In this document: positions 1 to 31,081 of the stretch, one piece after another
Layout: each line of letters starts with the position of its first letter
Position numbering within the stretch: position 1 is the stretch's first letter
NCBI GenBank assembly: GCA_014239625.1
Contig: JAAZYN010000001.1
Span: 1-31,869, forward strand
Direction: 5' to 3'
Length of the DNA: 31,869 nucleotides
Source of the DNA: Myxococcales bacterium
GTDB taxonomy: Bacteria > Myxococcota_A > UBA9042 > PHBI01 > JAAZYN01
Program-made: the position numbers and the translations under genes
The notes under the pieces: generated by a model
What the model was told of the DNA's origin: nothing
Seen by the model: the letters and a program-made list of their open reading frames with translations, nothing else
Databases searched by the model: none

Positions 1-26
1 GACAGCCGCTGGAGCCTACGCAGCGG

Positions 27-3000: not shown

Positions 3001-6000
3001 GAGAGCAGGACGTCGTCACGCCACAGGTGGTCTCGGACGACGATGTGCCGTTTGGGCTCACGCCACCAGTCGGCAAGAAGACCGAGGTCGAGGACGGTCT
3101 ATTTGGCGGGCTGAGCGCGGAGTATCAGAAGGCGCTCGAACGAGCCAACGCGGAGAGCGCGCGGCACGACAAGGTGGTCAAGCAGTATCGAGCCCAGGAG
3201 GTCGACGACGACACGTTCATCGCGTCCAAGGCACGGCTCGATGCTGCGGACCAGGCGTTCGACCTAGCGGCCGAGAAAGAAGCAGAGCGCACCAATGAGG
3301 CGCCATCGAAGCCGGCCGCGCCTGTCACGCCCAAGGCGGTTGAACCATCCCTAGATGACAAGAGCCGAAGGGCGGCGTTGGAGAACCTCGACAGGGTCCA
3401 GCGCGACCCGGAAGGATCAAGCACCAAGGATCTGCTGCGAGCCGCTGGTGTGCTGTCTCACCAAATAGCAAGCCTGAGCCGCAAAGGAGAGAACCCTGAT
3501 CGCGTCCGGTCGCTGAAAGTTGACATGGATCACTTCACCGCAATAGTCGGTGAAAGGTCTAAGGTGGCGCGTAAGCCAGCGCCCCCGGTGAAGCCAGTCG
3601 AGCAACCGGCAGCAACGGCGCCCGCAGGGGACCAACCGCCACCAACGGGCGCCGCGATCGAGCGCCTGAAGAAGCACGGCATCAGGGTCAACGAGACGAC
3701 AACGAAGAACGGCACGCCGGTCTGGGAGCTGACCGGCAAGACGTTCGACCACAAGGCGGCGATCAAAGCCGCAGGAGGTCGCTGGTATGGCCCGAAGAAA
3801 GCCTGGTCCATCTACGACGCGAGCAAGCTCACCGACCTCGTCGCCGCGCTCGACGGAGGAGACGCAACTGGAAGCGGCGCTCAGGACGACACCGGGTCTG
3901 GCGACAACACTGATGAGGACGCGCGCATCAAGCAGCTCCGACGAGACGAGGACGGACGAGCCGACGCCCGACTCTCTGGTAGCGAGCTTGCGGACCTTGT
4001 CGACGCCGAGACGCAACGGCTGATTCGACTCGGGCTCAACGTCGGCATGCCGGCGCATGTGGTCGACGAGCAGATCGAGGACATCGGCGGCATCGTCACC
4101 GCGTTCGAGAACGATCGCCCGATGTTCCTCCTGGCGAGCGAGGCCGGCACCGGGAAGACGTACGTGCTGGGCGGCGCCATTCGCGAGCTGGCGAAGCGCG
4201 GGCACACCAACGTGACCTACGTCACGCTCAACCAGGACCTCATCACGCAGATCAAGCGCGACCTGGCCGACTACGGCATCGACCACGTTCAGTTCGCGAC
4301 CTACTCGGAGCTGAGCAGCGGGCGGAGCCGTATCAGCGTCGAGGACGGTGTCCTGATGTTCGACGAGATGCACTCCGTCAAGAACGTGGAGAGCGCGCGA
4401 GGCAAGGCCGGCCAGAAGCTCATGGAGCAGGCCCGGCTCACGGTCATGGCCAGCGCCACGCCATTCGAGAACCCGGTGCAGGCGCAGTACCTCGCGGCCA
4501 CCGGCATCTTTGGCGGCACCGACATCGACAGCATGCGTGAGCGGTTCACCGACTGGGTGAAAGCCTACGGCGCCAGCATCCGCCGCATCCGCATTCAGAC
4601 ACCCTACGGCGAGAAAGAGATCGAGATTCCCTACTGGCAGGGTGGCAAAAAGGAAGACGGCGCCGCCGCGCGCCAGTGGTTCGTCAAACAGGGCATCTTC
4701 CATCAGCGCACCAAGCAGCTCGGCAAGGACGCCGTCGACAGCACGTTCCAGTCGGTCACGGTCACGAGCGAGTGGAACGAGCGGTATGACGCCGTCGAGG
4801 CCGTCTACGCCGGGGCCATGAACGAGTGGCAGAACGACCAGGGCAAGCCGCTGGACGCGAAGGTCCACGCGATGATTGCGATGCACCGGGTCAACGCCAT
4901 CAAGCGCATCCTCGAAGCCTCGAAAGTGCAAGACGGAATCCGCCTCGCAAAGCAAGAACTCTCCGATGGAAAAGCCGTGGTGTTGTTCACCGAGACCAAG
5001 GCCGATCGCGAGATGGGGCGGTTTCGGGAGTCAGGCGCCAAGGCCAGCTCACCGCTCTACGGATACCCAGAGATTCAGCAGCGCATCGCAGAGTGGGAGC
5101 AGGAAGCGGAGATCGCTCGTCGCAACTTCGAGCGTCCGCCGAGACGTCCGTTCAGCGAGGCCATCGAGACCATCGCGAAGCACTACCACGAGAGCGGCAC
5201 GCACTTCGAGCTGCCGTCTGTCGCCAGTGACATCGTCGCCGGCCTGGGCGGTCGGTCGAAGGTGGCCATCTACAACGGCTCCGTGAGCAACGCCGCCGCG
5301 ACCAAGAACAAAGCCGACTTCCTCGAAGGTCGGAAGCGCGTCATCATCGCGACGATGGCCAAGGGTGGCACCGGGCTGTCACTCCATGACACCACAGGCG
5401 AGCGGCCGACCACGCAGATCAACATCAACCTGCCGTGGGTGGCCACACAGGTCGACCAGGTCAGCGGTCGAGTGGCGCGCTACGGGATGCGCTCGCACGC
5501 CGACATCATGTGGGTCTTCGCGAAGAACATTCCGTTCGAGCGCGAGCTGTCGGGTCGCGTCGGTCGGCGGATGCGGGACATGGGCGCCGTGGTCAAGGGT
5601 GTCGAGAGCGCCGCCGCCAAGGTGCTCGCAGACGACTGGAACATGGAGGACGAGAAGGTCGACGTCTCTGGCGAGGGCACGACCATCAGCACCGAGGACG
5701 AGGGCGACATCTACGCGCAGGCCGACCGGCGCCAGGCGCAAGACAAGGGTGGGCGCGCGAGAGCGGCCGACACGAGCGGCGACTTCTTCCCGACCCCATA
5801 CCGGCTCGCCGCGCTCATGACGCGGATCTCGGGCGTGCGCGAGGGTCACGTTGTGCTCGAACCGTCTGTCGGGTCAGGGCGGCTGCTGACGTTCCTGCCG
5901 GACGGTGTCGTGCTCACCAAGGTCGAGCAACGGGGCGACCTCGCAGCCAAGCAGGACGCCACGCAGGGTGATTTCCTCGAGCTGGCGTCTGGGCTGGGCG

Positions 6001-9000
6001 AGTTCGACACCATCCTGATGAACCCGCCGTTCAGCAAGAGCCTGGACGCGGCCCACGTCATGCGAGCCGCGGACCTCCTCACGCCGGGCGGGCGCCTGGT
6101 CGCGGTGATGGGTGAGGGCGTCTTCTTCCGCCAGCAGAAGAAAGACGCCGCGTTCCGCGACTGGCTCGATGACCGTGGCGCCACCGTGGTGACGCTGCCG
6201 GACAACGCGTTCAAGACGAGCGGCACGGGTGTCAAGACGCGCCTGGTTGTCATCGACGAGACCGCGTCACCGGGCCGGCTCGATATCAATATGGCCGACC
6301 TCGACGCCGACGAGCTCGCGCGGGTCGAATCCTCGGTGCCGTCGCGCGAAAGCCTCCGCCAAGTGGCGCCGCAGAGCGGAGAGGCGCTCCCGTGGGACGG
6401 CCCGTCAGCCACCACAGACGGCTCACAGTCCAACCTGCCGGTCACAGCAAAGGGAGAGGACCAGCCGGACAGCGGCGGCGGTCGCAAGGTTCCTGTCACG
6501 CCGAAGCGGGAGACCGCGCGCAACTGGCCAGGCCGTTCACCGAGTGCGACGACGCCAGCTCACGGGCTGACCGGCACCGCGATCGCGCAGCGCATCGCCA
6601 AGATGATCGGGGACCTCCCGATCGCGGTGGGCAAGGCTGGCCGGTCCCGTGCGATTTTCAAGCACACCGGCACCATCCGCGAGGCGGTCGCTGAAGACTT
6701 CTTCGCGGAGCTGCACGAGCTGGGACACGCGCTCGACCTGATCGTGATGGGGTGGAGCGCAGCGCACAACCGAGACGCCATCGCGGAGGAGCTAAAGGTC
6801 GTAGGCGCGCCGACGTCGATGCCGTCCTACTCGGTCAAGACTATCCGTCGCGAGGGTGTCGCCGAGTACACACGTCGGTGGCTCATGGAGCCGGATGGGG
6901 TCCGCATCGAGGCGCCATTATTCACGCTGGTGTTCGAGGCGTTCATCCAGTCCGGCACACCACTGGCCAAGACGCTCGCGCAGGCGCAGGAGGAGACGCA
7001 ATATCTCTTAAACCTGAGCCCCGAGGAGACGCTCGGTCGCGGCATCGACAGCACGGGTGGACCTGGTCCAGTCGAGCGCCTCAACGTGCTGCTGCGCGCG
7101 GCTGACGACGACCCTCGCACGGGCTTCGACCGCATGTCGGTCGCGTGGAACGACGACGCGGCATCGCTGAAGCGCGTGACGTCTGCGATGCGAAACGGAG
7201 AGCCCGGTGACCCGGCGGTGGACGCCTACGCGCAGCACCGATTCGTGAACGGGTCGAGCGGGCTGGCCAAGGGGTTCCTAAAGTATGGCGTCCGCGACGA
7301 GAGCGGCAAGAAGATCGGGCCTGGTCTCTATGAGGCGCTGAAGCCGGTCTGGTCGGAGATTTACACCGTCGTTGGGAAGGCCGGCAAGCTCCAGAAGTAT
7401 CTCGTCGCGCGTCGAGCGGCTCGCATGGTGCAGCTCGGCAAGGAGAGCGGGCGCACCAAGTCAGAGATCACGGCCGGGCTGCTCCTGGGCGAGATGGACC
7501 CACGCCTGAAGGTTGCCGGCGAGGGCATCGACGCGTTCCGCAAGGCGATGCTTGACTGGTCGGTTCGGAATCATCTGATTTCCCCCGAGGTTCGCGCCAA
7601 GTTCGACAAGACATGGGGCGGCTACTACGTGCCCTGGAACAAGGTGCGCGACCTGGCGCTCCGAGTGTCGAGCGGCAAAGGCGGCGGGCGCAACTCCAGA
7701 GTGCCGTTTGGTCGTTTCTTTAGGGGCGACGGACGCATCCGCGACCCGCTCATGAGCATCATCACCAACACGTTCGAGCAGGTCCGTGCCGGGATGGACA
7801 ATAAGTGGAAGCTCGCGCTCGTCGACCAGGCGACGAAGACCGAACACCGCGGCGTGAAGGGGGAGAGCGAGCAGATCGAAACGCTGGGTGGTCGGTTTCT
7901 CGATCGCATCGTGGCCGACAAGCACGAAGTGTTCGTCAACTTCGAGCGGATCTCCGACGAGATATTCGAGGCAGCGCGCAAGCAGGGCTATATCCCCGAG
8001 TTAGAGGCCGGATGGATGTCGTCGAAGGAGGAGCTTCTCAAGGGGCACGCGTCGTACTGGGTGCCGAACACGCTGGCGATCGGCGGGAAGCACTACATGA
8101 CGGTGCTCCGCCACGGTGAGCGCGAGTGGTACGAGGTTCACGACCAAGGGCTCTGGGATCTGATTGAGTCGGGGTCCGGCCAGGCGGCGGCGGTCTACCT
8201 CTCCGTGCTGCGGGCGCCGGCACAGCTCCTTCGCCGGATGGCGACCTCGACGCTCGGATTCATTCAGCGCAACGTGATTCGCGACTTCCTCTCAGCGGTC
8301 AACTACTCGAAGGGCGTCTACACGCCGCTCGATTCCATCAACGGGTTGATGTCCGTGCTGAAGGAGGATGAGAACTGGCAACTGTTTCTCACGTCAGGCG
8401 CGCACGGCGGCACCGTCGTATCGCAAGATAGAAACTACCTCCGGGGGGAGATTCGCGGGCTGGGCAAGACGCGCATCAGGCGCTACGCCGAGATGATTGT
8501 CCGCAACCCGTTCGAGGGCATGCGCGCGTTGTCGGAACTGTCGGAGCACACCACCCGCGTGGGTGAGTTCAAGAAGGTGCGCGAGATGGAGCTGTCCGGC
8601 GGCGCCACCGACGAGGAGGGGCTCTCCCGCGCGGCCTGGGCGGCTCGCGAAGTGACGCAAGACTTCTCGAAGCAGGGCAGCTACGCGCGGGAGATCAACC
8701 AGCTCGTGCCATTCTTCGCCGCGCGCATCGGTGGCGTGACCCGGCTCGCCGAGGAGGTCAAGCGGTCCCCGATTCAGATCACCCGACGCGCGCTGATGAC
8801 GATCATCATGCCGTCGATGTTCTTGTGGTATCTGAACCGCGACGACGACGAGTATGAGGAGATCCCCGGCTGGGCGAAACGCGCCTACACGCACATCCCC
8901 GTTCACCAGGCGCTCCGCGACCGTGGGTGGGGCTCGCACGTCTGGATTCCGCGCGCCTTCGAGTTCGGTGAGATATCGAACGTGCTAGAGGCTGTGCTCG

Positions 9001-9875
9001 ACGCGTCGTTCAAGGGCGTGTCCAGCGACGAAGTGCTCGAACGTCTCCCGCTGCAAAACCGCGACGACGCAATGGCGTTCGTGTTGGACATGGTCCCGCA
9101 GGCCGTGCTGCCGCTGATGGAGGTCAGGACGAACTACGACCTGTTCCGCAAGCGCAACATCGTCAGCCCGTTCGACGAGGGCCTAGACGAGTCGATGAAG
9201 TACAGCCGGTGGACGTCTCAGACCGCGCGCCACCTGGGCAAACTTCTTGAGATGTCACCAGCCGTCATCGACCACCTGATCTACGGCTACACCGCTGGCA
9301 TGGGACGCGGCGTGGTGAAGATGGGCGACGAGGTACTCGGCCAGCTCGGGCTCTCACCGCAGGGGCCGGCGCTCACGTTGCGCGATGTGCCGGTTGTCGG
9401 CACGCTGCTGAAGGGAGACAGCCTGTCGTCGTCCTCGGCGTCGACCAATGCGTTCTACCGTGAGGTCGAGCGGCTCGACGGCGCCGCCGCCAGCATCCGC
9501 CGGCTGGTCAAGGCGAAGAACTACACAGGGGCTCAGAAGCGTGCCGAGAAAGACGGGCTGGAGATCAGCATCCGGGGCGGCGGGTTCGGGTCGGTCGAGG
9601 AGCGGCTCACAGCCGGCGCCCAGGTCGTCGTGATGAGCGATCGACTGCGTGCCCTACGCAAAGCTCAGCAGGGCATGCGCGACCTCCGTAGCGGGCTCGA
9701 CAGGGCGCTCGGCGACGAGACGCTCAGCCGCGAGGAGAAGTGGACGCATCTGAACCAGGTGTCGGTAGCGCTCGTTAACCTCAGTCGGGTGTCGCTGGGT
9801 AAGGAGCCGCTCGAACGGACGGACCGCGAGAAGGCTCGGACGCTGCCGGTCACCCCGGTCGCGAGTGGGCAGTAG
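27..9875 (+). CDS. Giant polyvalent (DarB-like/LPD38) protein, probable virion-ejected protein; 5'-truncated
   Basis: The frame is open from base 3 to the TTG at 27, so the true start is upstream. Motifs: ART-like YQG...GHDGII...QIVVF (about 2004-2430); Walker A EAGTGKT (4140-4160); DEMH (4362-4373); SAT motif III; GGTGLSLH...QVSGRVAR (Strawberry-notch-like helicase C); methyltransferase EPSVGSG and NPPF (6021-6032); HELGH (6714-6728) plus REGVAE; C-terminal LPD38-like REVTQDFSKQG...VPFF...SPAVIDHLIYGYTAG. Confidence 0.9.
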   Translation: MVGIIASDALPAGESGIQVDPEYLATADIRDLDRPSPVEGAPAIQRQVEGFERVPRAYDPTNPDDRPLTSADTLAYREDIIRGGRAKRSSEMMARGTKAGFGSMVYGTLAERATTVSAAFKQYDEIGGTMPDGTVKRSLASKMATPVLDRVGEWARKRYVDNQAATAPPDHIVGDILDDPQLLSDPDWWAYNTGQMAASIAAFAAPMRGVAAATGAVMRYTSPTAQAVAGLAGGTATEAMVEGSLAWNDAIDRGETEETAAKEAAEVYKRNLVLIGATGSVGFLPRSMIPGSLVSGRLGRAAEATRGVVSESIQEGGQEVITNLAADRPAGEGVATSALLGGLAGGGMQVGFNRLDQARDSARLDREQEAARPWERGQTPAEPPPPVDVVTAKTQPSGGVSPELQENAAIDSETARKTVAITEKPPVATRSTGQISPPAPKGAGDTGGVVRPGEAEVERPPDTSPVLAAPPVTPKREPKSVRPPQVEPFDIENDEIAELDRIEQELETAPFQPKTITPQDRYGEADVSPREAGAPVYDDIIGLSGAFRHYTRGDIRGAIADLKAGKRSVASDLVMDVVRGRRSGERGLSKPIIPLDEDMVEPEPDWVSEEQAAPPVTPKEPWTPKPYGQQETKEETAKRVEDSKAILAPMKAAAERGPGAKVYQGRGADPKDVYGPDAVREGRAVPLFGKAQYYAIEERDARTYGEVTEHDAPQLKNPLVLDSDRAWHDLQRAAGIDLEKSMATEPGNIPALTAKLQAHIRNQGHDGIIVEAGWDGDVNAKGEGIKQLRGKVGHSQIVVFEDAKKPAAPVATKAYQGSGTLRRYIQGADRGQSKSWEEIVDQVRGEGSGFSESQIRRAIIELDADGEIATPGKKTPAEEAGLDLGERTELPVSWTSAFLLGPEARAKTLREATHSGIESEYAAFVAQRGRLELEAESATGPARNDIADQLGMVNGYLEDVQAERARRNDPAYDTNDKGEQQGRLPGAVGDVREQDVVTPQVVSDDDVPFGLTPPVGKKTEVEDGLFGGLSAEYQKALERANAESARHDKVVKQYRAQEVDDDTFIASKARLDAADQAFDLAAEKEAERTNEAPSKPAAPVTPKAVEPSLDDKSRRAALENLDRVQRDPEGSSTKDLLRAAGVLSHQIASLSRKGENPDRVRSLKVDMDHFTAIVGERSKVARKPAPPVKPVEQPAATAPAGDQPPPTGAAIERLKKHGIRVNETTTKNGTPVWELTGKTFDHKAAIKAAGGRWYGPKKAWSIYDASKLTDLVAALDGGDATGSGAQDDTGSGDNTDEDARIKQLRRDEDGRADARLSGSELADLVDAETQRLIRLGLNVGMPAHVVDEQIEDIGGIVTAFENDRPMFLLASEAGTGKTYVLGGAIRELAKRGHTNVTYVTLNQDLITQIKRDLADYGIDHVQFATYSELSSGRSRISVEDGVLMFDEMHSVKNVESARGKAGQKLMEQARLTVMASATPFENPVQAQYLAATGIFGGTDIDSMRERFTDWVKAYGASIRRIRIQTPYGEKEIEIPYWQGGKKEDGAAARQWFVKQGIFHQRTKQLGKDAVDSTFQSVTVTSEWNERYDAVEAVYAGAMNEWQNDQGKPLDAKVHAMIAMHRVNAIKRILEASKVQDGIRLAKQELSDGKAVVLFTETKADREMGRFRESGAKASSPLYGYPEIQQRIAEWEQEAEIARRNFERPPRRPFSEAIETIAKHYHESGTHFELPSVASDIVAGLGGRSKVAIYNGSVSNAAATKNKADFLEGRKRVIIATMAKGGTGLSLHDTTGERPTTQININLPWVATQVDQVSGRVARYGMRSHADIMWVFAKNIPFERELSGRVGRRMRDMGAVVKGVESAAAKVLADDWNMEDEKVDVSGEGTTISTEDEGDIYAQADRRQAQDKGGRARAADTSGDFFPTPYRLAALMTRISGVREGHVVLEPSVGSGRLLTFLPDGVVLTKVEQRGDLAAKQDATQGDFLELASGLGEFDTILMNPPFSKSLDAAHVMRAADLLTPGGRLVAVMGEGVFFRQQKKDAAFRDWLDDRGATVVTLPDNAFKTSGTGVKTRLVVIDETASPGRLDINMADLDADELARVESSVPSRESLRQVAPQSGEALPWDGPSATTDGSQSNLPVTAKGEDQPDSGGGRKVPVTPKRETARNWPGRSPSATTPAHGLTGTAIAQRIAKMIGDLPIAVGKAGRSRAIFKHTGTIREAVAEDFFAELHELGHALDLIVMGWSAAHNRDAIAEELKVVGAPTSMPSYSVKTIRREGVAEYTRRWLMEPDGVRIEAPLFTLVFEAFIQSGTPLAKTLAQAQEETQYLLNLSPEETLGRGIDSTGGPGPVERLNVLLRAADDDPRTGFDRMSVAWNDDAASLKRVTSAMRNGEPGDPAVDAYAQHRFVNGSSGLAKGFLKYGVRDESGKKIGPGLYEALKPVWSEIYTVVGKAGKLQKYLVARRAARMVQLGKESGRTKSEITAGLLLGEMDPRLKVAGEGIDAFRKAMLDWSVRNHLISPEVRAKFDKTWGGYYVPWNKVRDLALRVSSGKGGGRNSRVPFGRFFRGDGRIRDPLMSIITNTFEQVRAGMDNKWKLALVDQATKTEHRGVKGESEQIETLGGRFLDRIVADKHEVFVNFERISDEIFEAARKQGYIPELEAGWMSSKEELLKGHASYWVPNTLAIGGKHYMTVLRHGEREWYEVHDQGLWDLIESGSGQAAAVYLSVLRAPAQLLRRMATSTLGFIQRNVIRDFLSAVNYSKGVYTPLDSINGLMSVLKEDENWQLFLTSGAHGGTVVSQDRNYLRGEIRGLGKTRIRRYAEMIVRNPFEGMRALSELSEHTTRVGEFKKVREMELSGGATDEEGLSRAAWAAREVTQDFSKQGSYAREINQLVPFFAARIGGVTRLAEEVKRSPIQITRRALMTIIMPSMFLWYLNRDDDEYEEIPGWAKRAYTHIPVHQALRDRGWGSHVWIPRAFEFGEISNVLEAVLDASFKGVSSDEVLERLPLQNRDDAMAFVLDMVPQAVLPLMEVRTNYDLFRKRNIVSPFDEGLDESMKYSRWTSQTARHLGKLLEMSPAVIDHLIYGYTAGMGRGVVKMGDEVLGQLGLSPQGPALTLRDVPVVGTLLKGDSLSSSSASTNAFYREVERLDGAAASIRRLVKAKNYTGAQKRAEKDGLEISIRGGGFGSVEERLTAGAQVVVMSDRLRALRKAQQGMRDLRSGLDRALGDETLSREEKWTHLNQVSVALVNLSRVSLGKEPLERTDREKARTLPVTPVASGQ

Positions 9876-10599: not shown

Positions 10600-11145
10600 A
10601 TGAGCCCATCACTGAATAAATCCGCCGCGCTGCTCGGTTCTGATCGCATGACTGGTCCTGGCGAACATCTCACCTGGTCGGAGATGGCGTGCTGGAATCG
10701 CCTGGTTCAGCCTCGGGTGCTCATTGCCCGTTACCCAGACGAGTGGCGACAGACTCGCGCGATACGGCTGGCCTACGCGTTCGAGGTCATCCGCTGGGCC
10801 TGCCAGCAGATGCCTGGTCGCTCGACGCTGGCGCCGTCGTCACACGCCATCTCGGTGCGCTCGGCGTACCGCACGGAGGGGTACCAGGCGCAGCTCAAGG
10901 CGGCAGGCTACGCGACCGCCGTCAAGAGCCAACACCTACAAGGCCGGGCGCTCGACCTGGCGCCGCCGGCCGGTATGCCGACCGCGCAGTTCTACGAGGT
11001 CATCCACAACCTCGCGACCACCACCATCGAGGAGATCGCCGGCATCGGCGAATACTCGACGTTCGTTCACGTCGACACCCGACCAAACCGGGCTAGGCTG
11101 GCCACATGGCACCGGACGACCCAAGACGCCCAACGCGCCGCATGA
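10600..11145 (+). CDS. Endolysin, peptidase M15 (Zn D-Ala-D-Ala peptidase fold)
   Basis: SAYR...SQHLQGRALD...GIGEY..FVHVDTR motif set typical of M15. The start could instead be the downstream ATG at 10648. Confidence 0.85.
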   Translation: MSPSLNKSAALLGSDRMTGPGEHLTWSEMACWNRLVQPRVLIARYPDEWRQTRAIRLAYAFEVIRWACQQMPGRSTLAPSSHAISVRSAYRTEGYQAQLKAAGYATAVKSQHLQGRALDLAPPAGMPTAQFYEVIHNLATTTIEEIAGIGEYSTFVHVDTRPNRARLATWHRTTQDAQRAA

Positions 11146-15885: not shown

Positions 15886-16121
15886 AGGTCTGGCTCGTGG
15901 TGGCCATCATTGCGGCTGGCGTGCTGACCGCGCTCGACCGCAACCGCATCAAGGTTGAGCGTGACGAGCTGGTCGCGTCTCGGTCCGCCCTGCAACGCTC
16001 GCTCGACGACCAGATTCAGGGGAACCGCGACCTGGTCAAGCTGAATACCTGGCTGCTCGACCGCAACGAGCTGCTCGAAAAGCTCTATTCACTCACCACG
16101 CTTGAAGGAGACACACGATGA
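15882..16121 (+). CDS. Membrane-anchored coiled-coil protein (79 aa)
   Basis: ATGA overlap and GGAGGAG RBS; MKVWLVVAIIAAGVLTAL TM segment followed by a coiled coil. Confidence 0.65.
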   Translation: MKVWLVVAIIAAGVLTALDRNRIKVERDELVASRSALQRSLDDQIQGNRDLVKLNTWLLDRNELLEKLYSLTTLEGDTR

Positions 16122-16750
16122 GAAGCACTTGGCGACCCCGTGGCACGTACCTGACCGTCGTTCCGTTGTTGGAGGCGCACGTCAGCGCGGCCGGCAGCAT
16201 CATCATCCCCGAGGCCGTCAAGAAGAAGCCCTACATGGGCATCGTGTCGGCGGTCCCGCCCTGGCCGTGGTGGAAGCACCTGGTCGGGCTCAGGGTGGCG
16301 AACGTCGGCGACCTCATCGGCTTCAGCCAGTACGCCGGCCAGCCGTTTGACCAGCGCGACGGCGGCGACGAAGTGTTGATGGTGCAATCCATCGAGGTCA
16401 TCGTCGTCAAGCGCAAGGGCTCGTTTCAGCTCGTCACGCACCAGCTCGACGAGGGCCGCACCGCACAGCACGTTGAGGGCTACCTCTGCGAGCACTGCCT
16501 GGTCTCTGTGGGCGCGCTGGCTGATGAGACGTCGGCGATTCAGCGGCTCGCGGTGGCGGACGAGGAGGACCAGGCCGAGGCGCATCAAGCGAAAGAGGAC
16601 GCCGCCGAGGGCAAGCGCCGGCTCGCTCGCATCCGTGAGGAGGTTCGCGAGGACCAGCGTGCGATGAGTAAGTCAGAAGGGCGACCCACATGGACCGTGC
16701 CGCCGGCGGTGGCGGAGCTGACCGATAGGGAGCGTTCTGGCGATGACTGA
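16118..16750 (+). CDS. groES: GroES/Cpn10-like co-chaperonin with a long C-terminal extension
   Basis: RPRGTYLTV...GSIIIPEAVKKKP..G.V.AV...VANVGDLIGFSQYAG...DEVLMVQSIEVIVV aligns with the GroES consensus. About 110 extra residues follow, including CEHC. Confidence 0.75.
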   Translation: MRSTWRPRGTYLTVVPLLEAHVSAAGSIIIPEAVKKKPYMGIVSAVPPWPWWKHLVGLRVANVGDLIGFSQYAGQPFDQRDGGDEVLMVQSIEVIVVKRKGSFQLVTHQLDEGRTAQHVEGYLCEHCLVSVGALADETSAIQRLAVADEEDQAEAHQAKEDAAEGKRRLARIREEVREDQRAMSKSEGRPTWTVPPAVAELTDRERSGDD

Positions 16751-17344: not shown

Positions 17345-17593
17345 ATGGACCGCCGCACGTTCATCAAGGCCACTGCCGGGCTCCTGGTCGCCGGGGCCAC
17401 AGCTCGAACCGCCGCCGCGCCCGGCCGGCTCACCTTCATGGGCCGTCCTGTGGTGGCCGACCCTTGCGCGCCTCGTGGTGTCATGTATTTCTACGACGAG
17501 TGCGCGGCGATCACGCCAGAGCAGTGGCGACTCCTCCTCCGGCGACAGCGGGAATACAACGCCGCCGTCAACGCGTTCAACGACCATGCCTGA
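17345..17593 (+). CDS. Small protein with twin-arginine (Tat-like) signal
   Basis: MDRRTFIKATAGLLVAG...AAA matches (S/T)RRxFLK plus a hydrophobic h-region. Alternative start at 17336. Confidence 0.6.
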   Translation: MDRRTFIKATAGLLVAGATARTAAAPGRLTFMGRPVVADPCAPRGVMYFYDECAAITPEQWRLLLRRQREYNAAVNAFNDHA

Positions 17594-18149
17594 TCCGTTC
17601 GTCTTCCTGCCTGACACGCTCGTGGTCTCCGAGGAGGCCATTGACGAGGTCATCCCTGCCGTGCAGCAGTACGAGGAGCACGCCCACACCGTTGGCGCCG
17701 CCTTTGGTGTCTACCTCCAAGAGATTCAGCCCGTGCTACACGGGACGCCATGTGCTGCCCACGTTCGCGTGCCGCGCCACCAGGGACCGGGCGCCGTCGC
17801 TGATCGGTTCCACCCGGCTATGGCGTTTCGTCGCTGGTTCGACGGCGCCATGCCGCAGTTCATCATCACCATCGACGCCGCGCTCTGGCGCGACTTCGAC
17901 GCCTCTCGCCGGGAATGCCTTGTCAGTCACGAGTTGCTCCACATCCAGCCCGTTCTGAACGACCACGGGATTCTGAAGCTCAACAAGGATGGGACGCCTA
18001 TGCTCGAACTGAAAGAGGCCCACGATACGGAGGTTTTTGACAGTGAAATCATCAGATGGGGGCCAGGGTTCCTTGGTCTCGAACACCACTGCACCACCCT
18101 CGCCGAAGGTCTCGCCAGAGAACAACGTCGCGGGCTCAAGCTCGCGTGA
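17586..18149 (+). CDS. Putative phage metallopeptidase (HExxH)
   Basis: FIITID...W......RECLVSHELLHI...L...HDTEVF...I.RWG pattern. The start at 17586 overlaps the previous stop. Confidence 0.75.
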   Translation: MPDPFVFLPDTLVVSEEAIDEVIPAVQQYEEHAHTVGAAFGVYLQEIQPVLHGTPCAAHVRVPRHQGPGAVADRFHPAMAFRRWFDGAMPQFIITIDAALWRDFDASRRECLVSHELLHIQPVLNDHGILKLNKDGTPMLELKEAHDTEVFDSEIIRWGPGFLGLEHHCTTLAEGLAREQRRGLKLA

Positions 18150-21928: not shown

Positions 21929-22046
21929 TTGCGGTCGGCTGACTGCCGCGCCCCGGCGACGTCATCCCCAAGCGTAGCCTCACTGCCGAGGGGGAGTGCA
22001 ATCGGCGTCAGACATGGTCTGGGGCACGTCGGAAGGCCGGCCGCAA
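21929..22046 (+). ncRNA. Candidate structured RNA or cis-element between the GH gene and terL
   Basis: Closing 12-bp stem 21929-21940/22035-22046 (2 G.U), with nested stems 21950-21954/22021-22025, 21958-21963/22004-22009, 21965-21969/21991-21995 and hairpin 22010-22020. No known family recognised. Confidence 0.4.
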
Positions 22047-23825
22047 CCCTTTCTTGGGGGAGGTGCGGCATGGAAACGACGAGAGGCACTGCTGTCTGTG
22101 AGCAGCTCACTCGAGAGGCCATCAACGGACACCCCACCCTTGAGACGGGGAATCTCTTTCCATCGGACTGACGATTTGCCACTGGTTCGACAGGCCGGCC
22201 CGTTCGAGTTCGGCTACATCAGCCCCACCACCGGACTGCACGAGCGCGGTCTGGAGAACCCCAAGCAATTCCTCGCGCACACGTCTCAGGCCGACTGGCT
22301 GTTCTACGGCGGCGCGGCCGGCGGCGGCAAGTCTGAATACCTCATCGTCGAGGCGGTCCAGGTCTGTCTCGACAATCCCGGCTGCGAAGTCGCGCTGTTC
22401 AGGCGGACCCACAAGGACCTGCTCCGGTCGCTCATCATGCGCTTCCGGGCGCTGGTGCCCAAGCGCATCGCTCGGTTCAACGCGACCGACATGTACGCGC
22501 AGTTCTTCAATGGCTCCATCCTCTGGTTCTGCTACTGCGCCACCGAGGCGGACGTCTACAACTACCAATCCGCTCAGTGGCTCATGCTCGGGCTCGACGA
22601 GGCCAGCCACTTCACCGAATACCAGTTCATGTATCTGCAAACGCGCGTTCGGTCGGTCATCCCGCACCGACGCAAGCGCGTGCGCCTGGCGTCCAACCCC
22701 GGCAACCGAGGCCACGGCTGGCTCAAGCGCTTCTTCCTCCGTCCGCCCCCGGAGCTGCTCGGCAACCGGGCGCCGCTCGCGATGCACGAGGTTTGGCGCC
22801 CGGAGCGGCCGAAGGAGTGGGAGCAGTTCGTGCCGCCGGGTCAGCAGATGCCAACGCGCCAGTTCATCCCGGCGTACTTCGAGGACAATTGGGCGCTCCA
22901 GCAGAACGACCCAGGCTATCTCGCGCAGCTCTACCTGCTCGGCGGCGACAAGGGCCGGCAGCTCGCGGAGGGCGATTGGGACGCCAACTCGACCATGATT
23001 TGTGGCAACGAGTGGCGGACGACGCACCGCGTAAGCTCCACCGACGTCGATTTGCTCGCGAGTAGCCGATTGAAGGTCGGCCAGGTCATCAACTGGCACG
23101 TCATTCCGAACGACCTATGGCGTCCACCGAAGGGCGCGACCATCTTTGGCAGCGTCGACTACGGCTACGGGGCGCCGTGGTCCGCGCACCTACACGCGGT
23201 GCTGCCCGGTGGCCACATTCGCACGTTCTGGGAGTGGTACGAGACGCGCGTGCGGGACGAGGACCAGGCGCGGTGGATGCGGGTGGACATCGAGGAGCTG
23301 GGGCTCGCTGACGAGATTCAATGGATCGTGCTCGACCCGGCGATGAAGAACAGCCGGTCTGAGGTAGGGCTGTCGCGGTCCATCATGGAGGTATATGATG
23401 ACCACCTCGGTCGACCACTCGGTATTCACCTACGACCTGGCGCGGCGGGCAGGGCCGCACGGATGAGCCGACCGAACCGTTGGAAGGACGCGCTGGCGAC
23501 CGGAGCCGATGGGTTCCCGAACTGGAGCGTCACGACGGCCTGCCCGCATCTCATCCGCACCGTGCCGGATGTGCCGTTCGATGAAAAAGACCCAGAGGTC
23601 GAAGACGGCGACTCTGAGAATCACGCCTACGAGGACGTGGGCCGGTTCTTCGAGGCGCGTCCGTTCGCACCGCGCACCATCGACATCGAGGCGGTCAACC
23701 TCGACGACGTCTCCACTCGACACCATGCCGCGATTGCGGCGAAACACGACCAGGGCGGGCACCGGTCCTACGGCGTGGCCACGCTGCACGTTCCTGGTCT
23801 CTCACCGAAAGGACCGACGCCATGA
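21996..23825 (+). CDS. terL: Terminase large subunit (start uncertain; TTG 22176 is also possible)
   Basis: Walker A GGAAGGGKS; Walker B LGLDEASHF; LASNPG coupling motif; RNase H-like GSVDYGY...VLDPA...ENHAYED. Confidence 0.93.
   Translation: MQSASDMVWGTSEGRPQPFLGGGAAWKRREALLSVSSSLERPSTDTPPLRRGISFHRTDDLPLVRQAGPFEFGYISPTTGLHERGLENPKQFLAHTSQADWLFYGGAAGGGKSEYLIVEAVQVCLDNPGCEVALFRRTHKDLLRSLIMRFRALVPKRIARFNATDMYAQFFNGSILWFCYCATEADVYNYQSAQWLMLGLDEASHFTEYQFMYLQTRVRSVIPHRRKRVRLASNPGNRGHGWLKRFFLRPPPELLGNRAPLAMHEVWRPERPKEWEQFVPPGQQMPTRQFIPAYFEDNWALQQNDPGYLAQLYLLGGDKGRQLAEGDWDANSTMICGNEWRTTHRVSSTDVDLLASSRLKVGQVINWHVIPNDLWRPPKGATIFGSVDYGYGAPWSAHLHAVLPGGHIRTFWEWYETRVRDEDQARWMRVDIEELGLADEIQWIVLDPAMKNSRSEVGLSRSIMEVYDDHLGRPLGIHLRPGAAGRAARMSRPNRWKDALATGADGFPNWSVTTACPHLIRTVPDVPFDEKDPEVEDGDSENHAYEDVGRFFEARPFAPRTIDIEAVNLDDVSTRHHAAIAAKHDQGGHRSYGVATLHVPGLSPKGPTP
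22070..22171 (+). CDS. 33-codon upstream ORF overlapping the start region of terL
   Basis: Strong GGAGGT RBS (22059-22064) 5 nt before ATG 22070, in a different frame from terL; TGA ends 4 nt before TTG 22176. Confidence 0.4.
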   Translation: METTRGTAVCEQLTREAINGHPTLETGNLFPSD

Positions 23826-24462: not shown

Positions 24463-25092
24463 ATGAAATATATCGCTGGCGCCGGCACCCGAGACTGGAC
24501 CTCTCCGCCCTGGCCACCACAGGCCGACTGGCGATGGTGGCAGCTCCGGTCGCGGTTCACGCAGAAGATGGCGGTTCACGGCCTGGAGCTGCATGCGCCC
24601 TGGTCGGTGTTCGGTATGGACGTCCCTCCGTGGAGCTGTGAGCTGTCTGGTACGTTCTTCGCCGGCAAGGATCTGCGCGCCTGGTGGCGCGGCGCTGCTT
24701 CGCTGGTGGCCGCGCTGCTGGAGCTGCCGCCCGAGGACCGCAACATGCTGCTCCACTCGCACTGTGGCAACGCCGGCATCCTGGCCGCGTTTCTGATAGA
24801 GGCCAACGGCGAGACGGTGCGGTCGCTGACGACGGTCTGCACGCCGAGGCGGCGCGAGCTGGACCAGTATTCAACCGCGTTGAAGTGCCGGCGCCGGCAG
24901 ATCACCACGAAGGAGATCATCGGGAACCACATGCAGTGGATGGGCGGTCGCTTTTCGAGCTGGTCGATGCCGGACGGGTGGGACAACTACGTGGCGAAGC
25001 GGAAGATTGGCCACAGCGAGCTACTCCGCGACGTCGACCGGTTCCCTGAAGACTTCGAGCACGGAATCGTCGAGTTCATGAAAGCCGCATAG
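24463..25092 (+). CDS. Alpha/beta-hydrolase (lipase/esterase-like)
   Basis: Nucleophile elbow LLHSHCGNAG (Ser at 24757-24759); LTTVCTP strand; late IGHSEL His (25012-25014); purine-rich RBS before ATG 24463. Confidence 0.65.
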   Translation: MKYIAGAGTRDWTSPPWPPQADWRWWQLRSRFTQKMAVHGLELHAPWSVFGMDVPPWSCELSGTFFAGKDLRAWWRGAASLVAALLELPPEDRNMLLHSHCGNAGILAAFLIEANGETVRSLTTVCTPRRRELDQYSTALKCRRRQITTKEIIGNHMQWMGGRFSSWSMPDGWDNYVAKRKIGHSELLRDVDRFPEDFEHGIVEFMKAA

Positions 25093-25100
25093 GGGGGCAT

Positions 25101-25343
25101 ATGCCGAAACCGGGACAGCACAGCGACGAGGAGATCAACAACTGGTTCACGTACCACCCGCCGAACGGGCCAGGGGTCGTGGATCGCTACGCGCGGATTC
25201 GGGCGTCAGCTAAGCGCCTCGCGCTGACCATCCGCGACAACTGCCCAGCCGGCGCTGATCGGTCGGCGGCGATGCGACATCTGCGCGAGGCGGTTATGAC
25301 GGCCAACGCCGGCATCGCGTGCGCGAGTGAAGAGGGGGCGTAG
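25101..25343 (+). CDS. Acb2/Tad1-like helical-hairpin protein, candidate anti-defence nucleotide sponge
   Basis: 80 aa; NWFTYHPP...RY.RIR..AK.LA..I.DNCP....RS.AM.HLREAVM.ANA.IA pattern; AGGGGG RBS. Confidence 0.65.
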   Translation: MPKPGQHSDEEINNWFTYHPPNGPGVVDRYARIRASAKRLALTIRDNCPAGADRSAAMRHLREAVMTANAGIACASEEGA

Positions 25344-26156: not shown

Positions 26157-28565
26157 TTGCAACCCGTAGGAACACAGACCGGCCATCCACTCGACCAGGC
26201 CGTCCAGGTCGACTACGAGGCGCCCGCGCGCAAGTTGATGCGAACCTGCATCGACGACGCGAGCGGGAATCACGGCCGTCTCGACCGCGACCGCGCTGAC
26301 TGGCTGTCGCTCCTCTATTACCGAGGCGGGCAGGACAATCAGTGGGTCATCTGGGACAACACCTCTAGCCGCTACATCACGCGCGGCACGGACCCCAAGC
26401 GCGGCGGTCTCCCGTCTCACGTTCACCGGGCTGTCTCCAACCACTTCGCCCGCACCATCGACGGCATCTGCTCAATCCTCAACCAGAGCGCGCCGGCCAA
26501 GGTTTGGTCTCCCCAGACGCCCGATGACCCCGACCTGGCCGCAGCCGACGTCGCTTCCAACGTGGACGAGGTCATCCACGATGAGATCGCCTACCACGAC
26601 AAGCTCCGCCCTGAGCTGCACAAGCTCATCACCCTGACCGATAAGGCGCTCCTGGTCCCCTGGTTCGACGACGACGAGAAGTGGGGCATGGAGGGCATCG
26701 AGTTGATGAACTGCCCGGCGTGCAACCAGCTCGTCGAGCCGGTCGAGGCGCAGCAGGAAGCGCAGAAATTCAACGAGCAGCTCCCCGAGGCCGCGCCCGA
26801 GTCGATGCAGCGCGACGAGACGTCCTGCCCGGACTGCGGCGGCGACATGCAGATGGCGCTCGACCCTGCCGGCCGGCCAGAGTTGACCTATCGCCCGAGT
26901 GGCAAGTTCCGCGCAGACGTCTATCCGTCGTTCGAGTTCTCGTTGCCGCAGCACGCGCGAGGCACACGCTCAGACGCCGAGGGCGTCGATTGGGTGCTCA
27001 TTCACTCAGGGATGACCGACGCGCAAGTGCTCGACCGATGGCCCGGCGCCAAGGGGAGCCTCTCGAAGACGTCCACGGGTGGCCAGCTCGAAGACGGACA
27101 CCTCCAGCACCAGTACGCGCGGGCCATGCGGGCGCTTAGCTCGCCACAGACCGCCAGGGCATCCGCGCAGGCGTCCTACGGCTCTGGCGGGCCAGACCTC
27201 AACCTCGTCTACCGCGTCCAGCACGACCCCACCGAGGAGTTCCCGCAGGGTCTCCAGGCCATCATGGTCGGCGACTACTTCGAGGCCGGACCGCTGCCGG
27301 TGCAGGACGACCGAGGCCGGCACGTCAAGAGCTGGCTGGTGCGGAGCTACACCACGACACCGCAGTCTGGATTCGGCAAGCCGCCATCTGACGACCTGGT
27401 CCCGCTCCAGAACACGCACAACATCATCGAGACGCTCATCGGGCTCATCCTGATGCACAACGCGGCGCCTCGCACCTTCATACCGCTGTCGAACCGGCTG
27501 GAGCGCGAGCCGAGTGGCGTGCCGGGTGAGCACGTCTGGTTCTCGACTACGACGCCAGGTGAAAAGCCGTTCACGGAGCAGGGCCAGAACCCGCCACAGG
27601 GGCTCTACCAGTACCTCGCGCTCGTCGAGGAGAAATTCCAGACGCTCTCCGGGCTCAACAGCGTGCTCCAGGGACAGCGGCCGAAGGGCGACCCCACCCT
27701 TGGCGAGATAGAAATCTTGCAGGACAGGGGCATGGCGGCGTTCGAGGAGCCGCTCAAGGGGCTCGTCGCGTTCGAGCGGGATCTCGCCCGGCTGATGATC
27801 TGGATGGCGAAGCGCTCGATGTGGGCCAACCGCTTCCAATCGGTTCAGGGGGAGAACGGTGATTGGGAGATCGAGAAGTTCACACAGGCCGACCTGAGTG
27901 GCAAGGTGGACGTCCGCATCGACTTCGCGAGCGCCTGGCCCAAGACGGCGTCGATGCGGCTGCTGCGGATTCAGAAGGCGCTGGAGCTGGGTGTTCTACC
28001 TCCGGCCGCGATGGACCCAGAGCTACAGGGCAAGATGCTGACGCTCATGTCGCTCGAAGACCTCAAGCCGTCGTTCGACGTCACGCGCAAGCAGATTGCC
28101 CGCGAGCTGGACGTCTGGAAGACCGCCGAGAACCCACGCGCGATCGGTATGCCCAGCCAGCTCAACGAGCTGACGATGCACCTCCACTACAAGAGCCTCT
28201 GGATGCGGACGGAAGAGGCCGAGGAGATGGCCCGCGACCGGCCGGAGGTCTACAACGCGTGCTTCATGCATCTGACGATGACGGCTCAGATGGTTGCGAT
28301 GCAGCAGGCGCCTCCGCCCGAGGCCGGCGACGACAAGGGCGACAAGAACGAGAAAGACGACAAGGGCAAGGGCGACGACGCCGAGGCCACGACGGGTGAT
28401 GGTGGCGGCGAGGACCCAGCCCGAGGAAATGCCGTTGACGAGCTGACCAAGGCCGGCGTGATTCGCCCGGCCGGCGGTGGCGGCGGTGGCCAGGGCGACA
28501 ACGACCCTGGTGGTTTGGTGAAGGCGGGCGTACTCCAACCGGCCGGCGGTGGGGGTGATGGGTAG
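26157..28565 (+). CDS. Portal protein with internal CxxC...CxxC insertion and acidic Gly-rich tail
   Basis: W...L.YY.GGQDNQW...N.FA..I...CS.L.Q..P.....P....D...A portal N-terminal pattern; DDLVPLQ..HN...; SGL.SV.QG...GD.T..EI.ILQ; position between terL and scaffold. Confidence 0.85.
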   Translation: MQPVGTQTGHPLDQAVQVDYEAPARKLMRTCIDDASGNHGRLDRDRADWLSLLYYRGGQDNQWVIWDNTSSRYITRGTDPKRGGLPSHVHRAVSNHFARTIDGICSILNQSAPAKVWSPQTPDDPDLAAADVASNVDEVIHDEIAYHDKLRPELHKLITLTDKALLVPWFDDDEKWGMEGIELMNCPACNQLVEPVEAQQEAQKFNEQLPEAAPESMQRDETSCPDCGGDMQMALDPAGRPELTYRPSGKFRADVYPSFEFSLPQHARGTRSDAEGVDWVLIHSGMTDAQVLDRWPGAKGSLSKTSTGGQLEDGHLQHQYARAMRALSSPQTARASAQASYGSGGPDLNLVYRVQHDPTEEFPQGLQAIMVGDYFEAGPLPVQDDRGRHVKSWLVRSYTTTPQSGFGKPPSDDLVPLQNTHNIIETLIGLILMHNAAPRTFIPLSNRLEREPSGVPGEHVWFSTTTPGEKPFTEQGQNPPQGLYQYLALVEEKFQTLSGLNSVLQGQRPKGDPTLGEIEILQDRGMAAFEEPLKGLVAFERDLARLMIWMAKRSMWANRFQSVQGENGDWEIEKFTQADLSGKVDVRIDFASAWPKTASMRLLRIQKALELGVLPPAAMDPELQGKMLTLMSLEDLKPSFDVTRKQIARELDVWKTAENPRAIGMPSQLNELTMHLHYKSLWMRTEEAEEMARDRPEVYNACFMHLTMTAQMVAMQQAPPPEAGDDKGDKNEKDDKGKGDDAEATTGDGGGEDPARGNAVDELTKAGVIRPAGGGGGGQGDNDPGGLVKAGVLQPAGGGGDG

Positions 28566-29800: not shown

Positions 29801-31081
29801 ATGCCCGGATCAGACCTCACACAATGGGACCCGTTGTTCAAGGACGACTACGCCCCAGCCATCATCGACGAGCTGAATAAGGAGAACGTCATTCTCCAGT
29901 TCATGACGTCTGAAACGCCGGACGACACCTGGGTCGGTCGGCAGAAGATCATTCCAACAAAGGTCGGCCGCAACTGGTCGGTCGGGTCGATCGGTGCCGG
30001 CGGCGCGTTGCCGAACGCCGGGCGGTCGGCGTACGTCGACTTCAAGGTGCCGATGCGCGACACCTACGGTCGCGTCGGGTTCGAGCGCTACGTCATCGAG
30101 CAGTCGAGCAACTCGAAGGGGTCCTGGCAGCAGGTTATGCCCCAGGAGATGCGCGGCCTGGTCGAAGACCTGGCATTCTCTCGGAACCGGATGGCCTGGA
30201 GCTACGGCGAAGGCGTCCTGGCGCTCGTCAACGGTGCCCAGACGGCCGACACCACCATCGAGGTGGACGCGCCGGGCAACGTGGCCGGCTCCATCATGGG
30301 CAACCGCTACCTCTACGGCGACTCGACGTCGGGCATGCAAGTGGCCTTCATCGACTCATCGGATGCCGTTCAGGGAACCGGTGTCATTAACAGCGTGCCG
30401 GCGGCTGGCACGACGGTGGTCAGCGATACGGCCATCACCTGTGACGACAACGCCAAGATCGTGCTGGCGCAGACGCCGACGCAGAACAGTCTCGACAAGG
30501 AGCCCGAGGGCATCCTGGCCGGGATTGACGACGGCACCTACGTCGGGACGTACCACAACATCAGCCGGACCACGTACCCGATCATGCAGAGCTACGTCGT
30601 CAGCTCCGTGGGCACGTTGTCGCTCGATGCGATTCAGCAGCCGATCGACGCGGTGAGCATCCAGGTCGGTAAGGGCATCGATTTCTTCGCGTGTGAACAC
30701 GCGGTGCGTCGAGCCTACCTCGTGCTGTTGGAAACCGACCGGCGTTACACCGGTGCAGACCTGTCGAGCCCGGATGGAGGCACGTCGGCCGCCAAGAAGC
30801 CGACCGGCAAGACCATCTCCTACGGCGATATTCCGATGTGCGTCGACCGAGATGCGCCGTACGGCATGTTGTTCGGTATCAACAAGGCGTCGTGGGTCCG
30901 CTACGTGATGAGCGAGGGGACCTGGGCGGCTGACGAGGGACACGTCCTGAAGTGGGTGAGCGGCTACGACCAGTGGACCGCGTTCTACTACATTCTCGAC
31001 AACTTCCACTGTCAGAAGCCGAACTGCAACTTCCGCATGGAAGGCATCGACGTCAACCAGATCACGGTTCACAGCTACTAG
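29801..31081 (+). CDS. Major capsid protein (HK97 fold, with a probable insertion domain)
   Basis: AGGAG RBS; E-loop-like IIPTKVGRN...GGALP.AG; M..L..DL...RNR...S.G.G.LA spine helix; GILAGIDDG.Y.G..NISR..YP; YGDIP..VDRDAP.G C-terminal strand. Confidence 0.88.
   Translation: MPGSDLTQWDPLFKDDYAPAIIDELNKENVILQFMTSETPDDTWVGRQKIIPTKVGRNWSVGSIGAGGALPNAGRSAYVDFKVPMRDTYGRVGFERYVIEQSSNSKGSWQQVMPQEMRGLVEDLAFSRNRMAWSYGEGVLALVNGAQTADTTIEVDAPGNVAGSIMGNRYLYGDSTSGMQVAFIDSSDAVQGTGVINSVPAAGTTVVSDTAITCDDNAKIVLAQTPTQNSLDKEPEGILAGIDDGTYVGTYHNISRTTYPIMQSYVVSSVGTLSLDAIQQPIDAVSIQVGKGIDFFACEHAVRRAYLVLLETDRRYTGADLSSPDGGTSAAKKPTGKTISYGDIPMCVDRDAPYGMLFGINKASWVRYVMSEGTWAADEGHVLKWVSGYDQWTAFYYILDNFHCQKPNCNFRMEGIDVNQITVHSY

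Follow-up and report, generated by a model that had tools for sequence, protein, structure and literature searches.

The question raised by this locus is whether a small open reading frame on the contig of an uncultured phage encodes an immune-signal sponge, and of which kind. The Acb2 family consists of small helical phage sponges for the nucleotide alarm signals of CBASS and Thoeris. The original prediction named the open reading frame a divergent Acb2/Tad1-like sponge candidate, possibly with shifted ligand specificity. The window, i.e. the whole stretch of DNA analysed, is an entire contig of 31,869 bp from a fragmented MAG (5.3 Mb, 1,286 contigs, 68% completeness) and has a GC content of ~65%. 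The contig is phage; its head genes are listed in Table 1 together with the other features.

Table 1. Positions of genes, signals and protein segments in the 31,869-bp window
Feature	Position	Strand	Basis or remark
Giant ORF	3..9875	+	5' end open, at least 3,290 aa
Peptidase_M15 (endolysin-type) gene	10600..11145	+	
Phage ORF with Cpn10 domain	16118..16750	+	
'Putative phage metallopeptidase' gene	17475..18149	+	PF18894
Large terminase	21996..23825		domain searches (Pfam/PHROG)
ORF directly upstream of the acb2-like gene	24466..25092	+	~208 aa
G-run GGGGGG, Shine-Dalgarno-like	25092..25097	+	3 nt 5' of ATG; read from sequence
Acb2-family sponge-like CDS, complete	25101..25343	+	ATG start, 80 aa, TAG stop within coordinates; ORF listing
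Extended segment FTYHPP, residues 16-21	25146..25163	+	AF2: residues 16-25 non-helical
Acb2/Tad1 hairpin domain, residues 17-74	25149..25322	+	Pfam profile positions 1-58 of 58
Loop, residues 22-30	25164..25190		
Helix 1 of hairpin, residues 26-47, bears R34	25176..25241	+	AF2, pLDDT 94-95 here
Helix 2, residues 52-79: A52, D53, R59, R62, E63, M66, T67, N69	25254..25337	+	AF2
P22-like portal	26157..28565		domain searches (Pfam/PHROG)
Major head protein	29801..31081		domain searches (Pfam/PHROG)

The acb2-like open reading frame is a real gene, whose signals fit and whose homology goes far beyond chance. The ORF listing and direct reading bear out what was first described: the translation includes both quoted strings (WFTYHPPNGPGVVDRYARIRASAKRLALTIRDNCPAGADRSAAMRHLREAVMTANAGIA), and FTYHPP, CPAGAD and REAVMTANAGIA are all present, with the CPAGAD and MT residues at the positions given. 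The N-terminus (MPK...) lines up with the N-terminus of the closest homolog, P0002. The G-run before the start codon looks like a Shine-Dalgarno site, a putative assignment, and shares one base with the last base of the TAG stop of the upstream open reading frame. At the 3' end, the TAG stop of the acb2-like open reading frame overlaps the GTG start of the next same-strand open reading frame by one base.

The gene lies within a run of small co-directional genes that extends from the terminase to the portal. A scan of 21.5-26.5 kb for promoters and terminators gave nothing exceeding shuffle expectation. The validated acb2 of JBD67 is likewise found among phage head genes, and the homolog in a Gordonia phage is situated directly 3' of the portal gene. 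Homologs of 10 neighbouring window proteins were looked for at 86 other loci, and none lies within ~6 kb of the acb2-like gene. Since no neighbour recurs at these homolog-bearing loci, the gene behaves as a mobile accessory cassette.

The open reading frame directly upstream ends 8 nt before the acb2-like start, and the two may therefore be co-expressed. Pfam and PHROG searches with it gave no match. Its nearest Atlas clusters, found with language-model features, are viral hypothetical and alpha/beta-hydrolase or lipase-like (scores 0.86-0.89), a lead only.

In an HMM search the protein matches the profile of the Acb2/Tad1 hairpin. Residues 17-74 match the full length of Pfam PF24729 (E-value = 3.2e-13, 50.1 bits), above the curated cut-off of 27, and a genome-wide profile search of the MAG gave the same PF24729 result. 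The protein also matches PHROG 1454 (E-value = 2.8e-19). Database homologs number 81, down to an E-value of 6e-18, and PF24729 is found in all 81. The experimentally validated JBD67 Acb2 matches PF24729 end to end with 59.6 bits. Membership in the family, and in the subfamily described below, is secure, and we hold it with very high confidence.

Searches of the PDB sequences point in the same direction. A broadened profile, consisting of the subfamily and of Tunturiibacter, Mycobacterium, Lactococcus, Gordonia and Paenibacillus phage homologs, gives as top match 9ptq (Acb2 homolog 43, here Acb2_43), gapless over 59 residues (E-value = 0.0011); the next match has an E-value of 0.19. Narrower searches, with the single sequence or with the subfamily-only profile, show weak in-register matches to 9ptq and to T4 Vs.4 (7uq2), and the subfamily-only profile reaches Vs.4 and Acb2_43 at E-values of ~0.1-0.2. 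With JBD67 Acb2, hhalign of the subfamily profile gave no alignment, the subfamily HMM gave no match, and the N- and C-terminal halves, aligned locally and pairwise, did no better than shuffles. The PF24729 match and the 9ptq top match support an Acb2-like sponge candidate, the function being suggested by homology.

In the Paenibacillus phage entries KT361654-KT361657 and NC_028767, Acb2-hairpin homologs are labelled 'phosphomannomutase'. These are proteins of ~67 aa with a PF24729 match, and the label is therefore implausible and probably a propagated misannotation.

In the confident AF2 monomer model (pLDDT 85.8), residues 9-15 form a short helix and residues 16-25 an extended stretch, and two long helices span 26-47 and 52-79, a topology that agrees with that described for Acb2_43. 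The protein is small (80 aa), its two long helices are antiparallel in the prediction, and its gene is flanked by those for terminase, portal and major head protein. Foldseek against the PDB gave no match at E <= 0.001 and no Acb2 chain, and VIA-align against 48,161 PDB representatives gave generic helical hairpins and bundles (Z <= 9.1), within the helical-model background of the tool. Fold searches with a monomer do not have the power to single out a two-helix hairpin, and thus the PDB fold result is not counted against the assignment. In BFVD, the top-ranking matches come from phages and carry the name Acb2/Tad1 hairpin (weak Foldseek E-values, the best 8.7e-3 and none reaching 0.001).

The 81 nearest database proteins are 45-65% identical to the window protein by BLASTP, with the consensus FTYHPP..Q..Y..IR.AAK..A.VI..NTP..AD..AAIRKLREAVMTANAAIAL. 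An exhaustive HMM search yields 8,239 cluster representatives at E <= 1e-3, with 3,708 at E <= 1e-10. The motif of this AD/MT subfamily, F-T-Y-H ... R ... P-x-x-A-D ... R-x-L-R-E-A-V-M-T-A-N-A, is present in the window protein. Among 156 unique members, conservation in the first half of the motif is F16 in 155, Y18 in 153, H19 in 153, R34 in 151 and P49 in 154. In the second half it is A52 in 127, D53 in 155, R59 in 155, R62 in 156, E63 in 153, M66 in 153, T67 in 154 and N69 in 156, values that are inflated around residues 51-70, part of the set having been retrieved by motif patterns. A further 143 representatives of 50%-identity clusters from the exhaustive HMM search show the same pattern. 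Members score 88-121 bits on the subfamily HMM.

At each of the 14 strongly conserved positions, the window protein has the residue of the majority. The AD and MT residues that had been read as a divergence are indeed there, but they are the near-invariant consensus of a large subfamily and not a departure of this gene. From these alignments the window protein is a typical subfamily member and individually not divergent. Its sole oddity is one extra residue in the H19-Y30 loop. Of 144 aligned subfamily sequences, 139 have this loop (residues 22-30) one residue shorter and 4 have it at the same length; in the window protein it reads NGPGVVDRY against the subfamily xxxQxxxY, and the usual Gln is absent.

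Of the many Acb2 homologs already collected (4,204 in Hadary et al. 2025, bioRxiv 10.1101/2025.08.24.671296), 46 were assayed against seven defence systems in the same study. The AD/MT subfamily is filed there under Acb2, and the accessible part of Table S1 holds at least 35 sequences with REAVMTAN (10.1101/2025.08.24.671296). A tested relative is Acb2_27, which is the 76 aa product of gene 27 of IMG/VR Ga0075436_100001672 (Table S2, 10.1101/2025.08.24.671296). It shares 53% identity with the window protein over 62 aa (E-value = 5e-19), and its score on the subfamily HMM, 102.7 bits, falls in the range of the members. Scanning IMG/VR with a degenerate pattern did not find the contig of Acb2_27; the same pattern retrieved the native contig from JGI metagenomes.

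Acb2_27 and the window protein share FTYH, R34, D53, R59, R62, M66-T67 and N69 and the subfamily pattern AD...R.(L/V)REAVMTANA, and they are of similar length (76 and 80 aa). They differ in 47% of aligned residues, in the additional loop residue after FTYHPP of the window protein, and in the C-terminal tail. In plaque assays Acb2_27 inhibits type I Thoeris, which signals with 3'cADPR, and the Yersinia 3'3'-cUA CBASS; with cGAMP CBASS there was culture collapse, which the plaque assay did not confirm, and it is inactive against type II or IV Thoeris and Pycsar (Table S2, 10.1101/2025.08.24.671296). Inhibition by Acb2_27 is known by assay, whereas the window protein is known from its sequence. 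Of two more distant relatives, Acb2_20 was active against cGAMP CBASS alone and Acb2_17 against none of the systems (Table S2, 10.1101/2025.08.24.671296). Because these two behave unlike Acb2_27, ligand specificity is not safely transferable at 53% identity.

The residues that contact ligands are known from other members. In PaMx33 Acb2, dinucleotides are held by Y11, which stacks on the ligand, and K26, which touches phosphate, and cA3 is bound through its phosphates at a separate three-fold pocket by R67 and T74. Tad1 has the same i/i+7 Arg/Thr arrangement (R88/T95). In Acb2_43, H5 touches the ribose and, via its backbone, the diphosphate of 3'cADPR, and K19 touches the diphosphate. T4 and CHI14 Acb2, each without one residue of the R67/T74 pair, do not bind cA3 but belong to Acb2 all the same.

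The direct comparison with JBD67/PaMx33 is non-significant (the PaMx33 sequence was taken from the PDB alignment of JBD67 Acb2), therefore the PaMx33 equivalences rest on Pfam coordinates, on MAFFT alignment via intermediates and on conserved spacing. Y18 corresponds to PaMx33 Y11. Apart from the initiator, no other residue in the N-terminal half is invariant in the MAFFT alignment including JBD67 Acb2, and in Pfam coordinates Y18 stands at profile position 2 in both the window protein and JBD67 Acb2. PaMx33 K26 is tentatively placed at R34, on the strength of spacing and of a local alignment with JBD67 K26 that is non-significant; the charge is kept and the identity changed, which may affect binding. 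The gapless 9ptq alignment puts H5 and K19 of Acb2_43 on H19 and R34. For the three-fold pocket, MAFFT alignment with phage intermediates sets T74 (JBD67 T89) opposite R59 and M81 (JBD67 M96) opposite M66, and gapless extension with a conserved Pro gives A52 as the equivalent of R67.

These equivalences point to an intact pocket at the dimer interface and a remodelled three-fold pocket, a trait of the subfamily and not of this gene alone. Homologs with the canonical SRE...T...MW, from Paenibacillus and Gordonia phage, retain the Arg/Thr pair, and the AD/MT subfamily has Ala/Arg. The pair R67/T74 marks the cA3-binding subset of the family only; the window protein has A52/R59 instead. As the Arg/Thr pair of PaMx33 Acb2 and Tad1 is replaced by Ala52/Arg59, canonical cA3 binding by the window protein is doubtful. 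The shifted ligand specificity that had been proposed is supported by A52/R59 at the cA3 pair and by the blocking of Thoeris and cUA CBASS by Acb2_27, but such a shift would belong to the subfamily as a whole and would not be specific to this gene.

Comparison with individual sponges shows how much is shared. Acb2_43 (PDB 9PTQ, a hexamer with 3'cADPR) has two long antiparallel helices after an extended N-terminal segment, as predicted here, but the relation is weak (single-sequence E-value = 0.71), GRE...T...FF stands against GAD...R...MT in the window protein, and the C-terminal beta-strand of Acb2_43 is not predicted in the window protein. The Acb2_43 contacts T4, L6, V7 and K55 align with Y18, P20, P21 and A70. 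PaMx33/JBD67 Acb2 (PDB 8H2J, 8H2X, 8J8O and others) belongs to the same Pfam family and shares the pocket Tyr (Y11, here Y18), the Pro before helix 2 and a Met (M81, here M66); the basic residue 15 positions after the Tyr (K26) may be kept as Arg (here R34). However, PaMx33/JBD67 Acb2 has an insertion of 15-30 residues between the helices, with direct similarity non-significant. PaMx33 Acb2 neither binds gcADPR nor inhibits Thoeris. T4 Vs.4 (PDB 7UQ2) gives a weak in-register profile match at both helices (IKGY against FTYH, E-value = 0.14) and, like the window protein, is without the Arg equivalent to R67; Vs.4 does not bind cA3. It differs in keeping the Thr equivalent to T74 and the MW dipeptide, and its inter-helix segment is longer.

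Taken with the known relatives, the window protein is a small Acb2-family protein in which, by prediction, an extended FTYHPP segment leads into two long antiparallel helices. Judged by its homologs, it would most likely form a homo-oligomer; every solved Acb2 is a hexamer. The oligomer would bind and sequester, without cleaving them, host nucleotide second messengers made on infection, so that the effectors would stay off and the phage would escape abortive infection. The likeliest ligand site would be the dimer-interface pocket formed from Y18, H19 and R34, and the likeliest ligands would be CBASS cyclic dinucleotides (3'3'-cUA or cGAMP type) and/or 3'cADPR, the signal of type I Thoeris, as with Acb2_27. 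We infer the oligomerisation, the ligand binding and the defence systems blocked by analogy with these relatives. An oligomeric sponge for CBASS dinucleotides and/or 3'cADPR acting through the Y18/H19/R34 pocket is the best supported and probable reading.

The Acb2 hairpin fold may also be present without sponge activity for the known signals, the protein being an inactive or relic copy, binding a protein partner, or taking an undiscovered messenger. Assays give this explanation some weight: 19 of 84 assayed sponge homologs inhibited none of seven systems (Hadary et al., 10.1101/2025.08.24.671296), and Acb2 homologs 2, 17, 19, 22, 24 and 38 are among the inactive ones (Table S2, 10.1101/2025.08.24.671296). 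The change of the cA3-pocket pair to A52/R59 and the loop insertion, shared with so few of the aligned sequences (4 of 144), could be taken the same way. Against it, every strongly conserved subfamily residue is intact, so that purifying selection is acting on a shared function; Acb2_27, the sole subfamily member assayed, inhibits two systems; and Y18, H19 and R34 match known ligand contacts. A hairpin without sponge activity for the known signals is therefore judged unlikely, perhaps one chance among several, and an active sponge remains the preferred reading.

A further reading concerns the second pocket of such a sponge. In the AD/MT subfamily the phosphate-binding Arg may have moved from the R67 to the T74 position, where it would be joined by the invariant D53, R62 and N69. 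The second pocket would then be remodelled for a signal other than cA3 or cAAG, possibly one not assigned to any sponge, with Y18/H19/R34 still taking dinucleotides or 3'cADPR. We regard this as a speculative proposal with rather long odds. If true, the subfamily would be a distinct two-pocket class of sponge with a new ligand.

The label 'Acb2/Tad1-like' leaves room for a Tad1-type Thoeris sponge in place of an Acb2-type one. Tad1 (CbTad1 7UAV/7UAW, CmTad1) is a sponge that forms hexamers, with the second helix bearing a three-fold trinucleotide pocket, and its two-helix hairpin is covered by PF24729, which is common to both families; moreover, the tested subfamily member Acb2_27 inhibits type I Thoeris. 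But Tad1 has an N-terminal antiparallel beta-sheet domain and R88/T95, both absent from the window protein, which has about 15-25 residues before helix 1, with no strand in the AF2 model, and A52/R59 at the equivalent of R88/T95. No Tad1 chain appeared in three PDB sequence searches with the window protein or subfamily profiles (E <= 10 in two, E <= 1 in one). Hadary et al. also list the subfamily under Acb2 (10.1101/2025.08.24.671296). With no N-terminal beta-sheet and no Tad1 chain matched, the window protein is of the Acb2 type; the Acb2 half of the label holds, the Tad1 half does not, and a Tad1-type sponge is very improbable. That the open reading frame is a chance product of GC-rich DNA, in a window of ~65% GC with many overlapping spurious open reading frames on both strands, is already refuted by the homology statistics (profile E-values of 1e-13 to 1e-19, and 8,239 cluster representatives at E <= 1e-3 with a subfamily profile headed by the window protein), its start and stop being placed as in homologs and the gene being co-directional and tightly packed with its neighbours, and has practically no chance of being right.

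Other open reading frames of the contig are of interest in their own right. The giant open reading frame, whose 5' end is open, gives an LPD38 match (E-value = 8e-27) and combines an N6 DNA methylase segment with SNF2/Sbno-like helicase domains (AAA_34, ResIII, Helicase_C_4). The product belongs to the 'large polyvalent proteins' found on some phages and plasmids, which we take to be of the DarB-like type, and it may provide a second counter-defence (anti-restriction) function on the contig. The phage also carries an open reading frame whose first 90 residues include a Cpn10 (GroES-like co-chaperonin) domain (E-value = 5.5e-6, above the cut-off), as well as the endolysin-type peptidase and metallopeptidase genes of Table 1.

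In the MAG with which the contig was binned, 68% complete and with the phage-host link unproven, a search with SMODS (CD-NTase) and ThsB_TIR profiles gave no match. On another contig of the same MAG, a TIR_2 open reading frame at 3725-4438 (-), cut by the contig end, adjoins a patatin-like phospholipase gene at 2157-3125 (+). These two genes could be a TIR-based defence pair. The pair is not recognisable as a Thoeris system, having no ThsB_TIR match.

The literature already describes the family, the subfamily and a tested representative, and there is nothing surprising in this gene. Thousands of phage proteins share the Ala/Arg in place of the cA3-binding Arg/Thr, and one has been assayed. The acb2-like gene marks this phage as the carrier of a probable counter to immunity by signalling (CBASS and/or Thoeris). 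Its presence on an uncultured high-GC soil-type phage would imply that the host population uses CBASS and/or Thoeris.
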